A DNA stretch of 64,000 nucleotides from assembly GCA_963775425.1 (NCBI GenBank), contig CAVZJB010000011.1:608001-672000 (forward strand), in the 5' to 3' direction. This DNA comes from an uncultured delta proteobacterium (GTDB taxonomy: Bacteria; Myxococcota; UBA727; VGSZ01). Made by a program: the position numbers and the translations under genes. The notes below the pieces were generated by a model. That model was given only the letters and a program-made list of their open reading frames with translations. It made no database searches and was not told where the DNA came from. Below, in pieces: positions 3,698-15,364 of the stretch (position 1 is its first letter; each line of letters starts with the position of its first letter).

Positions 3698-6553
3698 ATG
3701 GTTACCAACAATCGCCCCTCCTGGTCTCTTGTACTCATCAACGCCTCGGTGCTCCTCCTGGCGGGCGTCGCCGGAGGGTGCCTCACGGGGAACGACGGCA
3801 GCGACGCCGGCCCCGACGTCGAGGTGAAGGCGCCGGTCGTCGAGATTGGCGGTCCAAGCGGCGTCGTCGTCGGCAACAGCGTGACGCTCGCGGCGATCAC
3901 CAGGGACGGGAGCGACGCTTCGTATACGTGGAGCTCGGCGAACCCCGCCGTCGCCGACGTCGACGCGTCCGGCACGGTGCGCGGCTTCTCCCCGGGCGAA
4001 GTGCTCGTCACGGCCGTCGGCGACGACACCCAGGCCAAGGGCGTCCACGCCATCGTGGTGCAGGCGGCGCCTGCGGCGGTGGTGGCGCTGGCCGGTCAGC
4101 ACCGCGTGCAGGTCGGGGCGCGCACGCAGCTCGTCGCGATGACCGTGAACGGCGCCGACACGGGTTACGTGTGGTCGAGTGACAACCAGGAGGTGGCGAC
4201 CGTGGCCTCCGACGGCAACGTCACCGGCATCGACGTCGGCGACGTGGTCATCACCGCCGTCGGCGCGGACACCGGCGCGGTGGGCTCCTTCAGCGTTGCC
4301 GTGACCGGCGCCTCCGCGGTGGTCATCACCGGCCCCTTCTACCTCGCCGTCGGCGACGACGCGGCGCTCAGCGCCACCACCGTCAACGACGTGGACCCCG
4401 ACTACACGTGGACGAGCAGCGACGAGTCGGTGGCCACCATCGACGCCGCCACGGGCGCCATCCACGGCAAGAGCGCGGGCGAGGTCGTCGTCACCGCCAC
4501 CGGCGCGACGTCGGGCCTGAGCGGCACGCTCGGCATCACGGTGCAACAGACCATCCCGCACTTCGACGAGTGGGCGTCGTCGGCGCACGCGAACCGCGCC
4601 GACGAGCCCTTCAACCACTGGAACTCCGAGGGCGAGATCCCCACGTCGTGCGCTCGCTGCCACAGCGACGGCGGCTACCGCGATTACCTCGGCGCCGACG
4701 GCAGCGCGGTCGGCGTCGTCGACTCGGCGCAGCCCATCGGCACCGTGGTGCAATGCACCACCTGTCACAACGACGCCGCCGCGGCGCTCACCTCCGTGAC
4801 CTTCCCCTCGGGCAAGACCCTCACGGGCCTCGGTCCGGAGGCGCGCTGCATGGTGTGCCACCAGGGCCGCGAGTCGGGGAAGACCGTCGAGGCGGAGATC
4901 ACCGCAGCGGGCGTGGGCGACGACGAGCCGAGCTCGCAGCTCGGCTTCGTGAACATCCACTACTACGCCGCCGGCGCCACGCTGAACGCCGGGCGCGTCG
5001 AGGGCGCCTACCAGTACGCCGGCCAGACCTACGACGTGCGCTTCCGCCACGTGCCGGAGCGCGACACCTGCATCAAGTGCCACGACCAGCACACGCTCAA
5101 GATTCGCATCACCGCTTGCCAGGGCTGCCACGAGAACATCTCGACGCAGGCGGACCTCAAGAACATCCGCATGATGTCGTCGATGCACAGCGACTACGAC
5201 GGCGACGGCAACAAGACCGAGGGCATCTACTACGAGATGATCGGCGTGCGTGACCGCGTCATGTCCGTCATGCAGGAGTACGGCCGCGAGAAGGGCGCGC
5301 CCATCTGCTACAACACGGACAAGTATCCCTACTTCTTCAACGACGTCGACGACGACGGCGCCTGCAGCGACGCCGAGGCCGTCTCCAGCAACGGCTATCA
5401 CGAGTGGACGCCGCGCCTCCTGCGCGCGGGCTACAACTACCACGTCGCCACCAAGGACCCCGGCGCCTTCGCGCACAACGCCAAGTACATCATCGAGGCC
5501 CTCTACGACTCCGCGCAGGACGTGAACGGCGCGCTGACGTCGCCCCTCGACATCTCCGCCCTCGTCCGCAACGACCCCGGCCACTTCAACGGCGCCGGCC
5601 AGCCCGCGCGCCACTGGGACAGCAACGAAGGCGTCGACTCCTCCTGCTCGCGCTGCCACGGCGCGTCGCAGGGCTTCCGCTTCTACCTGCAGTACGGCGT
5701 GGGCCAGCAGGTGCTCGAGCAGGGAGACGGCCTCGACTGCGCCACGTGCCACGACACCTTCGGCCACCAGGGCCAGCCGGGCGCGTTCCAGACCGTGTCC
5801 GTCGACAGCGTCACCTTCCCGAGCGGCGTCACCGTGACGCGGCCCGGGGACAAGGGGAACATCTGCGCCACCTGCCACCAGGGCCGCGAGAGCAAGGTGA
5901 GCGTCGACGCGATGCTCGACTCGGGCGGCAAGCTCTCCTTCAAGAACGTGCACTACTATCCCGCCGGCGCCGTGCGCATGGGAGCGGTGGCGCAGGTCGG
6001 CTACGAGTACGACGGCAAGCAGTACGCGGGTGAGTGGACCGGCCACCTCGGCGGGAGCTCCTGCGTGGACTGCCACTCGCCGCAGAACACCGACCACACC
6101 TTCATGATCGAGGACAACCTGCAGCGCTGCCAGCTCTGCCACGTGGGCATCACCCAGCCCACCGACATCCGCACCTCGCGTCACCCCGACGACACCGACG
6201 GCGACGGCGACACCAACGAGACGCTCGCCGGTGAGCTCGACGGCGTGGCCTCGGCGCTGCTCAACGAGATGAACCTCGTGGGCGGCCTCTGCCACGGCGA
6301 AGCGTACCCGTACTTCTTCAAGGACAACGACGGCTCCGGCGGCGAGTGCGACCCCGGCGAGCAGAGCAACCCGAACAAGTTCACCGCGTTCACGCCCGAG
6401 CTCGTCAAGGCCACGTACAACTACCAGCTCTGGCACAACGACCCCGGCGCCTGGGCCCACAACTTCGACTACATCGCCGAGCTCCTCATCGACTCCATCG
6501 ACGACCTCGGCGGCGACACCTCCAACTTCGTCCGCCCGGAGCCCACGCCATGA
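3698..6553 (+). CDS. Decaheme cytochrome c lipoprotein with three N-terminal Big_2 Ig-like domains
   Basis: Signal peptide ending LAGVAGGC; three YxW(S/T)SS...VAx(V/I)...G.V..TA repeats; 10 CxxCH in two homologous 5-heme halves, each with CHQGRES, NxHYY, DxDGDG, YPYFF and DPGAxAHN. Start could also be 3683. Confidence 0.9.
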   Translation: MVTNNRPSWSLVLINASVLLLAGVAGGCLTGNDGSDAGPDVEVKAPVVEIGGPSGVVVGNSVTLAAITRDGSDASYTWSSANPAVADVDASGTVRGFSPGEVLVTAVGDDTQAKGVHAIVVQAAPAAVVALAGQHRVQVGARTQLVAMTVNGADTGYVWSSDNQEVATVASDGNVTGIDVGDVVITAVGADTGAVGSFSVAVTGASAVVITGPFYLAVGDDAALSATTVNDVDPDYTWTSSDESVATIDAATGAIHGKSAGEVVVTATGATSGLSGTLGITVQQTIPHFDEWASSAHANRADEPFNHWNSEGEIPTSCARCHSDGGYRDYLGADGSAVGVVDSAQPIGTVVQCTTCHNDAAAALTSVTFPSGKTLTGLGPEARCMVCHQGRESGKTVEAEITAAGVGDDEPSSQLGFVNIHYYAAGATLNAGRVEGAYQYAGQTYDVRFRHVPERDTCIKCHDQHTLKIRITACQGCHENISTQADLKNIRMMSSMHSDYDGDGNKTEGIYYEMIGVRDRVMSVMQEYGREKGAPICYNTDKYPYFFNDVDDDGACSDAEAVSSNGYHEWTPRLLRAGYNYHVATKDPGAFAHNAKYIIEALYDSAQDVNGALTSPLDISALVRNDPGHFNGAGQPARHWDSNEGVDSSCSRCHGASQGFRFYLQYGVGQQVLEQGDGLDCATCHDTFGHQGQPGAFQTVSVDSVTFPSGVTVTRPGDKGNICATCHQGRESKVSVDAMLDSGGKLSFKNVHYYPAGAVRMGAVAQVGYEYDGKQYAGEWTGHLGGSSCVDCHSPQNTDHTFMIEDNLQRCQLCHVGITQPTDIRTSRHPDDTDGDGDTNETLAGELDGVASALLNEMNLVGGLCHGEAYPYFFKDNDGSGGECDPGEQSNPNKFTAFTPELVKATYNYQLWHNDPGAWAHNFDYIAELLIDSIDDLGGDTSNFVRPEPTP

Positions 6554-14411: not shown

Positions 14412-15364
14412 CGACGTCGATGTCGCCCTCGGAGCCAAAAACGGCTGCGGCCAAAGCAGAACGCCACGGCGCGCGCATCGGGGTCCGGGGCTTCGCGGTG
14501 GTCGCGGTGCTCGCCGTCGGCGCCGTCGGGGCGCGCGCGCTCCCCGACCGAGACGCGCGCGACGACGAGAAGGCGGCGGTGGAGGCGCGCGCGAAGACCG
14601 TGCGGGCCACGCGCTCGCTGGCGCCGTTGCCGAAGGGGGTGGAGGCGGTGTCGGTGCACGACCCGTTCGACTCCGAGGACTGCAGCTCGTGTCACGCGTC
14701 GGACGACAAGGACAACCCCGGCGCCGTCGAGGACACGTCGAGCGCCCTGTGCCTCGGCTGTCACGACAATCCCGCCGCCGGCGTCAAGGGCGTGTTCCAC
14801 AAGCACGGCGGCGCCGGCGGCCGCTGCCTCGACTGCCACAACCCGCACAACTCGCTGCAGGAGCACCTGCTGCACGCGCCGCCGCAGAAGCTGTGCGCGA
14901 GCTGCCACGTCGACAAGGAGCGCGGCGCCTTCGAGCACCAACCCATCGAGGCGCCCGGATCGTGCACCAAGTGTCACACGCCGCACGGCTCCGCCACCGA
15001 CGCGCGCCTCCTGAGGTCGGCGTATCCCGCCACGTTCTACGCGCCCTACGTCCGCGGGGCGTACGCGCTCTGCTTCTCGTGCCACGACCCGAAGCTCGTG
15101 GAACAGGCCAAGACCACCACCGCCACGATGTTCAGGGACGGCGACAAGAACCTGCACACGGTGCACGTGATGCGCGACGACAAGGGGCGCTCCTGCGGCG
15201 CGTGCCACGACATGCACGCGGGCAAGCGCAGGAACCTCGTGCACGACGACGTCGCCTTCGGCAGCCATGGTTGGCGGCTGCCGCTCGGCTTCCGCCAGAC
15301 CGACGACGGCGGCAGCTGCGCGAGGACCTGCCACATGGCGCGCAGCTACTCCCGCCGGCGCTGA
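14408..15364 (+). CDS. Multiheme cytochrome c (7 CxxCH plus 1 Cx3CH), paired-CXXCH type
   Basis: N-terminal hydrophobic anchor; motifs CLDCHNPH, CTKCHTPH, FRDGDKNLHTVHV, CGACHDMH and GGSCARTCH. Confidence 0.88.
   Translation: MTTSMSPSEPKTAAAKAERHGARIGVRGFAVVAVLAVGAVGARALPDRDARDDEKAAVEARAKTVRATRSLAPLPKGVEAVSVHDPFDSEDCSSCHASDDKDNPGAVEDTSSALCLGCHDNPAAGVKGVFHKHGGAGGRCLDCHNPHNSLQEHLLHAPPQKLCASCHVDKERGAFEHQPIEAPGSCTKCHTPHGSATDARLLRSAYPATFYAPYVRGAYALCFSCHDPKLVEQAKTTTATMFRDGDKNLHTVHVMRDDKGRSCGACHDMHAGKRRNLVHDDVAFGSHGWRLPLGFRQTDDGGSCARTCHMARSYSRRR

Follow-up and report, generated by a model that had tools for sequence, protein, structure and literature searches.

Here we present a nine-gene operon of the Myxococcota which we interpret, with a probability of roughly 0.6, as an outward electron conduit of two joined modules through which its host would respire extracellular acceptors. 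It lies in the window, the whole 64,000-nucleotide stretch that was analysed (contig CAVZJB010000011.1, positions 608,001 to 672,000, of assembly GCA_963775425.1 from an uncultured delta proteobacterium). That the operon encodes a trans-envelope electron conduit of one direction or the other we consider highly probable. An inner-membrane module of the NrfCD type is translationally coupled to a trio consisting of a predicted outer-membrane barrel and two multiheme cytochromes, and this trio recurs in other Myxococcota beside several non-homologous quinone-active proteins. An earlier note, made from the sequence of the window alone, had proposed a complete quinone-to-surface conduit in a single operon; the coupling of the two modules upholds that proposal in part, and its single linear 54-heme wire gives way to two separable modules, which in one sister locus are convergent operons, and to a decaheme family found mostly without the barrel.

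The Myxococcota, common in soils, sediments and groundwater, are seen mostly as aerobic predators. With a hard-wired quinone-to-surface operon they would join the drivers of iron, manganese and humic redox cycling. One outer-membrane trio combined with varied quinol dehydrogenases would also constitute a natural experiment on how pathways of extracellular electron transfer (EET) are assembled and tuned, and both the barrel family and the widespread, highly conserved family of the decaheme protein offer uncharacterised targets for biochemistry. No new category is opened by the operon, as porin-cytochrome mining has already yielded several comparable clusters.

Nine overlapping genes and 54 heme motifs

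The G+C content of the window is about 72%, so raw lists of open reading frames (ORFs) were noisy, and frames were fixed by means of heme motifs, third-position GC and overlaps. Nine genes, G1 to G9, all on the + strand and with no internal stops, occupy positions 3698-15364. Gene calls bear out the earlier observation of nine co-oriented genes joined by 4-nt ATGA or GTGA overlaps at seven of eight junctions; the overlap of G2 and G3 is 14 nt. The genes are as follows:

G1, 3698..6553, + strand, 951-aa decaheme lipoprotein with Big_2 domains
G2, 6550..7236, + strand, 228-aa tetraheme c-type cytochrome
G3, 7223..8146, + strand, 307-aa Fe-S protein of the NrfC/DsrO type, presumed periplasmic
G4, 8143..9447, + strand, 434-aa NrfD-family integral membrane protein
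G5, 9444..9848, + strand, 134-aa class I monoheme cytochrome c with signal peptide
G6, 9845..11233, + strand, 462-aa predicted outer-membrane beta-barrel
G7, 11230..12180, + strand, 316-aa 11-heme cytochrome of c7-type units, presumed periplasmic, with signal peptide and without lipobox
G8, 12177..14411, + strand, 744-aa lipoprotein with four 5-heme repeats (16 CxxCH and 4 Cx3-4CH)
G9, 14408..15364, + strand, 318-aa octaheme protein (7 CxxCH and 1 Cx3CH) with N-terminal signal or anchor

The motif count likewise agrees with the earlier one, giving 10 heme motifs in G1, 4 in G2, 1 in G5, 11 in G7, 20 in G8 and 8 in G9. These 54 motifs comprise 49 of the CxxCH type and 5 atypical ones, namely four Cx3-4CH in G8 and one Cx3CH in G9. 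Over all six frames of the window, the + strand holds 50 CxxCH motifs, 49 of them within 4649-15194, and the - strand none, a concentration that is not due to chance. A terminator scan found no terminator-like site on the + strand inside the cluster. The scan for sigma-70-like promoters, which is uninformative at 72% GC, returned 0 sites.

The predicted barrel and the cytochromes downstream of it

G6 matches no Pfam family and no NCBIfam model at E <=0.01. Its AlphaFold2 (AF2) model (pLDDT 76.8, pTM 0.72) has 22 beta-strands, and a Foldseek search with this model gave 342 matches in the Protein Data Bank (PDB) at E <=1e-3, the 50 listed being outer-membrane barrels (porins, AlgE and ushers). 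VIA, which is independent of Foldseek, returned outer-membrane barrels at Z 15-17.6, including OpdQ (Z 17.6) and FimD (Z 17.5), and aligned 350-360 residues of G6 to 22-strand TonB-receptor barrels at a root-mean-square deviation (rmsd) of 4.4-5. The earlier note had made its proposal depend on the 9845-11233 product being a beta-barrel, and AF2, Foldseek and VIA all point to a barrel. We therefore presume G6 to be a 22-strand outer-membrane beta-barrel that would serve as the sheath of a cytochrome. MtrB is not among the 50 matches listed for G6 by either Foldseek or VIA. Furthermore, the G6 profile finds no meaningful match among PDB sequences, no solved porin-cytochrome component being matched, and the MtrB/PioB model TIGR03509 matches nothing in this genome, a search whose control also matched no genome.

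A word-indexed search retrieved 11 close relatives of G6, and its profile, run against 1.84 billion representatives, retrieved 468 at E <=1e-3 and 94 at E <=1e-30. The last residue in an alignment of 11 sequences is W, Y or F in 6 rows, L or I in 4 and P in 1. Among 10 distant cluster representatives of the family, the sole named member is a hypothetical protein from a metagenome-assembled genome (MAG) of Candidatus Omnitrophota, and a protein atlas gave for G6 only clusters that are unnamed or of PEP-CTERM-associated outer-membrane proteins.

G7 is a candidate occupant of the barrel. All 11 of its CxxCH motifs are invariant in 10 aligned homologues, each of which has a signal peptide and no lipobox, and the family profile matches the "nanowire" cytochrome GSU1996 (3ov0_A) at E 4.5e-25. 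Modelling of the porin with the 11-heme protein, as the earlier note had suggested, gave a weak pass: the median ipSAE was 0.41 (0.56, 0.41 and 0.01 in the three runs) against 0.00 for the best of three controls, with a partner pLDDT of at least 48 and agreement between runs in at least 2% of contacts. In the calibration, 116 of 157 solved complexes attained this mark, as did 2 of 215 mismatched pairs; scores of 0.60 or below came from only 18 of the 157 solved complexes and from the two mismatches that had passed.

G8 carries the CxxxxCH/CxxCH domain TIGR01904 in four stretches (NCBIfam, 125.2 bits) and has no match among PDB sequences. Its lipobox cysteine is kept in 14 of 15 homologues, and we presume it to be the surface cytochrome. 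A label of cytochrome nanowire filament was considered for G8 and rejected for want of evidence.

G9 matches the Pfam family paired_CXXCH (102.6 bits) and aligns to PDB chain 6r2q_A at E 2.7e-12. We take 6R2Q to be the MtrCAB complex of Shewanella baltica and its 333-residue chain A to be MtrA; the label "Cystathionine beta-synthase" that this chain bears in the match table looks like a deposition artefact. The DmsE/MtrA model TIGR03508 gives 76.5 bits, below its cut-off of 192.2 and over the C-terminal part of the model only. These alignments suggest that G9 is a relative of MtrA/DmsE.

The trio in other Myxococcota

Conserved synteny, which the earlier note had named as a check on its proposal, was found for the trio. 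A scan of species-representative genomes identified 17 barrel loci, all in MAGs labelled as Myxococcota, Polyangia or "Deltaproteobacteria". The barrel is present in 14 of the 401 genomes of the phylum sample, and in the genomes searched it is confined to Myxococcota, with metagenomic proteins in addition. In 17/17 loci the barrel comes with a G7-like gene or domain. This lies directly downstream in 10 of them, and in the remainder it forms the C-terminal region of a larger cytochrome, which has 30 hemes in six loci. A G8-like cytochrome with CxxxxCH repeats is found with the barrel in 16/17 loci; the one locus without it, L003, ends 273 bases past its G7 homologue. The barrel lineages share only 29-45% identity, yet keep their flanking secreted and lipoprotein multihemes. 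A G9 homologue occurs in only one of the 17 loci, L002.

What stands next to the trio varies. In L001 the two modules are separate convergent operons, with homologues of G2-G3-G4 no more than 10 kb from the barrel, and in L002 they are co-oriented in the order G2-G3-G4-G9-G6-G7-G8, without G1 and without G5. At up to 10 kb from the barrel, L003 and L004 encode the fusion of an 11-heme protein with a cytochrome b of the FdnI/HydC type, presumably a CbcL-like architecture, and L004 has in addition a 7-heme protein of the NapC/NirT/NrfH type near the barrel, which we liken to ImcH. Because non-homologous quinone-active proteins have repeatedly and independently come to adjoin the same barrel trio, the trio is probably fed from the quinone pool; this juxtaposition is the best computational argument supporting such a feed.

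Five loci labelled as Polyangiaceae show another arrangement, in which a 30-heme cytochrome comes after the barrel and a G8-like gene and is itself succeeded by a flavoprotein of about 900 aa with 4Fe-4S dicluster and Pyr_redox_3 domains (L007:17852-20554, L009:16128-18752, L011:12897-15827, L014:16168-18825 and L017:15803-18700). Through this flavoprotein, electrons from NAD(P)H or thiols might enter a multiheme wire.

The NrfCD-type module

G2 has four CxxCH motifs, an N-terminal hydrophobic signal or anchor and a Pfam match to Cytochrome_C7 (27 bits), and finds no match among PDB sequences. Its homologues adjoin those of G3 or G4 in L001 and L002. G3 has a twin-arginine signal (RRGALKVLG near the N-terminus) and four Cys clusters, and G4 has about 10 hydrophobic segments. 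The NrfC-type and NrfD-type assignments of the earlier note hold, as G3 matches Fer4_11 at 70.9 bits and G4 matches Pfam NrfD at 150.7 bits. On NCBIfam, G3 scores 195 bits for DsrO (cut-off 200), ahead of QrcC (158), TtrB, ArrB and NrfC (127), and G4 scores 374.7 bits for DsrP, above the equivalog cut-off of 350. The closest solved chains to G4 are ActC of alternative complex III (ACIII), 6f0k_C (E 7.6e-13) and 6btm_C. We presume from these family matches that G4 holds the quinol/quinone site. G4-like genes are found at E <=1e-40 in 117 of the 401 genomes of the phylum sample.

Two labels suggested by these scores were rejected. The operon is not a Dsr complex, because no dsrA passes the cut-off in this 8.26-Mb genome of 94.55% completeness, the best match to the dsrA model being 20.8 bits against 392.85; there is also no adjacent DsrMK and no triheme DsrJ, G2 having 4 hemes. 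Automated annotation would probably mis-name G4 as a subunit of sulfate reduction. The ACIII label was likewise set aside, given that ActB1, ActD and ActF are absent, the operon has one NrfD gene and G2 is a tetraheme protein.

G5 matches Cytochrom_C at 42.9 bits and has one CxxCH and a candidate Met ligand. Class I cytochromes c are usually of high potential. A homologue of G5 with 60% identity is present in L001.

The decaheme lipoprotein

G1 begins with a signal peptide and a lipobox Cys, followed by Big_2 domains (71.1 bits) and two pentaheme modules with 10 CxxCH motifs in all. Among PDB sequences, only Ig-like/intimin stretches matched. The AF2 model of residues 295-951 (pLDDT 92.4, pTM 0.90) allowed a comparison of folds, in which Z scores were 10.1 for OcwA (6i5b; rmsd 4.4 over 225 aligned residues), 8.2 for the Carboxydothermus S-layer undecaheme protein (6qvm; rmsd 4.5 over 243) and 7.7 for NrfA (1qdb). 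The seven best folds are all multihemes of the NrfA superfamily, and unrelated rows stay at Z <=5.4. Foldseek was weak for this domain (E 0.014), and the sequence identity to OcwA and the S-layer undecaheme is 18-19%. The model thus predicts an OcwA/NrfA-like fold for the cytochrome domain.

The family is large. At least 3907 relatives of the domain (295-951) were found at E <=1e-3 among 8000 candidates scored, many at about 55% identity and named in their sources as "Ig-like domain-containing protein" or "cytochrome c3 family protein". In the phylum sample, homologues with about 50-55% identity occur in 37/401 genomes, a tally that includes G195, a genome flagged as unpublished, compared with 14/401 for the barrel. 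Twenty-one of the 37 carriers (21/172) fall in one family, among whose genomes are some of about 9-12 Mb. In the regions fetched around G1 homologues, no relative of G2-G9 lies within about 9 kb (14/14). L003 and L005 do have G1-like genes no further than 10 kb from the barrel.

Nine non-motif histidines are invariant and one more is nearly invariant in the G1 family. These are enough for bis-His ligation of ten hemes, and we accordingly interpret G1 as serving electron transfer, not catalysis. In the present operon it might act as a hub in the periplasm, held on a stalk of Ig domains, or, were it exposed at the surface, as a terminal reductase like OcwA. Over the family as a whole, it looks like a client of whichever quinol dehydrogenase adjoins its gene.

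Three other loci carry a G1 homologue with partners of its own. In L049:9917-16032 (-) and L051:5381-11700 (+) it lies beside a 4-CxxCH ORF and an ORF of about 800-860 aa with 2 CxxCH, and in L054:4579-9576 (-) beside a 738-aa ORF with 2 CxxCH. The tetraheme protein of L049 is of the NapC/NirT type, and the large proteins of L049 and L054 have weak class I cytochrome c matches (Pfam/NCBIfam). Two of the genomes are about 10-11 Mb and one is 7.7 Mb, and no barrel is near the G1-like gene in any of them. The set is an uncharacterised conserved respiratory module.

Proposed mechanism and rival explanations

In the conduit that we propose, G4 would engage in electron exchange with the pool of quinones, and the Tat-exported, four-cluster G3 together with the tetraheme G2 would carry them into the periplasm, where G5, G9 and G1 on its Ig-domain stalk would serve as relays or branch points. 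The G6 barrel would sheath the rod-like 11-heme G7, which would pass electrons to the 20-heme lipoprotein G8 at the cell surface. The likeliest use of such a pathway would be respiration of Fe(III) or Mn(IV) oxides, humics, electrodes or partner cells. The overlap coupling of all nine genes and the lack of an internal + strand terminator-like site speak for a conduit, and NrfCD-type modules of the SirCD and CbcSTU kinds are described in excerpts of PMC11434368 as feeding extracellular acceptors. The earlier note had cautioned that the direction of flow cannot be read from the sequence, and the caution is upheld.

Several observations weigh against an outward conduit assembled as described. A G4 homologue stands beside the barrel in only 2 of the 14 barrel genomes (this genome, G000, and G084), and seven others carry one on another contig; the all-in-one state is rare among barrel genomes. 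Because the G1 family mostly occurs without the barrel, 10 of the 54 hemes may not be part of the wire. The occupant of the barrel may be G7 or the MtrA-like G9, the G6-G7 score being a weak pass, and the locations given to G1, G8 and G9 are predictions from signal sequences. Additionally, the class of G5 would be easier to reconcile with an inward or oxidase-linked path than with the reduction of Fe(III).

The same hardware might indeed run inward, drawing electrons from Fe(II) or Mn(II) minerals, reduced humics, cathodes or partner cells and leading them from G8, G7 and G9 through G5 to a heme-copper oxidase, with a branch uphill to the quinones via an ion-translocating NrfD-type module. We consider this unlikely and retain it mainly because a class I monoheme cytochrome is part of the operon, in a position like that of MtoD in the mtoAB-mtoD-cymA clusters of iron oxidisers; ACIII/NrfD-type complexes are also proposed in models of Fe(II) oxidisers (PMC5566968, in excerpt). 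The two COX1-type oxidases of the genome would provide oxygen-linked electron sinks. However, G5 is missing from the otherwise co-oriented L002, and the CbcL-like and NapC/NirT-type partners in the sister loci resemble the quinol oxidases of outward transfer in Geobacter. A somewhat less probable alternative is that two independent systems have been fused in one transcript, G1-G5 being a periplasmic chain that ends in G1, a reductase or oxidase of some soluble substrate, and G6-G9 a conduit fed by other quinol dehydrogenases. The convergent operons of L001 suit such a fusion, as do the frequency of G1 homologues without G2-G9 neighbours, the tetraheme or 2-CxxCH partners of G1 homologues in L049, L051 and L054, and a fold family that includes the enzymes NrfA, octaheme nitrite reductase and MccA. 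The ten hemes of G1, however, are all of the CxxCH type with histidines enough for bis-His ligation, which would suit electron transfer; the nine genes are translationally coupled here; G1-like genes lie near the barrel in L003 and L005; and in L002, where G1 is missing, G2-G4 are linked straight to the barrel trio.

It is very improbable that there is no conduit at all, with G6 acting as a diffusion porin or exporter and the cytochromes forming a periplasmic network for electron storage or detoxification. The nearest solved folds among the rows listed for G6 are substrate porins, ushers and TonB-receptor barrels rather than MtrB, and its sequence matches no solved porin-cytochrome component. 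Nevertheless, the barrel is always flanked by secreted and lipoprotein multihemes across its divergent lineages, which is the defining signature of porin-cytochrome complexes as excerpted from PMC5566968 and PMC4245776, and the lumen of a plug-less 22-strand barrel would be big enough for a heme rod. A trans-envelope conduit, most probably outward, is the reading that we prefer.

Relation to described systems

By analogy, the function of the operon would be that of a Pcc/Mtr-like conduit combined with a SirCD/CbcSTU-like quinol dehydrogenase. The porin-cytochrome complexes (Pcc; OmaB-OmbB-OmcB and ExtABCD) have three parts in common, namely a barrel, a periplasmic multiheme and a lipoprotein multiheme side by side (PMC4245776, in excerpt). 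G6-G7-G8 show the same organisation, and it is on organisation that the likeness to OmbB- or ExtB-type complexes is drawn here. The c7-type units of G7, as in the dodecaheme GSU1996, and the CxxxxCH/CxxCH domain of G8, first defined in Geobacter proteins, add to the Geobacter likeness. In contrast to Pcc, with heme counts of 8 and 12, the counts here are 11 and 20, the quinol-dehydrogenase module is in the same operon, and the barrel belongs to no Pfam or NCBIfam family. With the Shewanella complex MtrCAB (6R2Q), the operon would share the principle of a cytochrome passing through a barrel to a surface lipoprotein cytochrome. It differs in that G6 has 22 predicted strands versus 26 in MtrB, G9 has 8 heme motifs rather than 10, and no member of the MtrC/OmcA family is present.

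The inner-membrane module has the layout of other NrfCD-type modules (DsrJOP, Cbc4 CbcSTU, SirCD and ActABC), a c-type cytochrome with a periplasmic 4Fe-4S protein and an NrfD-like protein. ActA has 5 hemes, versus 4 in G2, and G3 differs from the ACIII counterpart in having Fe-S domains only, without the molybdopterin-like part of ActB1. DsrJ differs from G2 in having 3 hemes, and SirCD can substitute for CymA with ferric citrate (both from excerpts of PMC11434368).

The earlier note had set its all-in-one locus against Shewanella and Geobacter, where the inner- and outer-membrane parts usually lie apart. Such a locus is not new in itself, since envelope-spanning clusters are already described in parts of PMC5566968, where mtoAB-mtoD-cymA, PCC3 and PCC4 likewise bring together a barrel, periplasmic or extracellular multihemes and an inner-membrane redox protein in one locus. 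PCC4 subgroup II even includes an Fe-S gene of pfam13247, the family that G3 matches (same source). As far as those parts go, these clusters have at the inner membrane CymA or a putative di-heme b protein of 5 helices instead of an NrfD-type protein, and the hosts are mostly Proteobacteria; it is in layout that our operon is likened to them. Also, Shi et al. (2014; PMC4245776, in excerpt) already list cytoplasmic-membrane cytochromes associated with pcc genes, in one Planctomycetota MAG an NrfD cluster lies downstream of a PCC (excerpt of PMC10732223), and new porin-cytochrome architectures are still appearing (excerpt of bioRxiv 10.64898/2026.05.27.727921). In part of a preprint (bioRxiv 10.1101/2022.03.26.485925), the Myxococcota already rank first for putative EET cytochrome clusters that are novel. 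The literature searched held no description of the operon, the G6 family or the G1 family; supplements, which lay outside the search, may list such clusters.

According to their PDB titles, both OcwA (Thermincola potens) and the S-layer undecaheme (Carboxydothermus ferrireducens) are cell-surface cytochromes. G1 differs from both in being a duplicated pentaheme module and a Gram-negative lipoprotein with Big_2 domains.

A bolder reading, which we offer tentatively and with less belief in it than doubt, is that the trio is an undescribed, largely Myxococcota-borne porin-cytochrome family acting as a universal outer-membrane socket wired to non-homologous inputs. These may include NrfCD-type modules, CbcL-like b/c fusions, NapC/NirT-type heptahemes and the Fe-S flavoprotein of ~900 aa encoded after a 30-heme cytochrome. 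Here, the trio would further be linked to a decaheme of OcwA fold carried on a stalk of Ig domains. If this were true, G1 would be the first Gram-negative counterpart of a Gram-positive surface terminal reductase, and large-genome, oxygen-respiring, myxobacteria-like organisms would breathe minerals or humics, or trade electrons with prey or partners.

Genome background and neighbouring genes

The genome contains 21 ORFs with at least 3 CxxCH, with 264 motifs in total. Multiheme ORFs outside the window, with sites at C11:445612-452520 (-), C4:372514-375462 (-), C11:166924-178284 and C5:518208-540224, include one of 2303 aa with 53 motifs, three that hold 29-30 motifs each, and a second cluster whose counts are 9, 9, 14 and 7. 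Two COX1-type heme-copper oxidases are present, one of them beside an ACIII-like locus. Two more NrfD genes lie near pentaheme ORFs (C11:816100-825840 and C4:542734-548042), one also near COX1, and both loci look like ACIII-type. Because of the two heme-copper oxidases and these two further NrfD loci, the organism is probably facultatively aerobic.

The operon is flanked by two genes on the opposite strand:

547-3444, - strand, PPDK (pyruvate phosphate dikinase)
15399-16646, - strand, MscS-type channel

The sole CxxCH motif outside the cluster is at position 63198, in a + frame, within an open-ended ORF at 62585-64000. Beyond the convergent MscS gene lies an ORF of 2875 aa (16781-25408, + strand) with high third-position GC and Ig-like domains of the Big_13 and Big_3_3 families, which is possibly a giant surface protein or adhesin.

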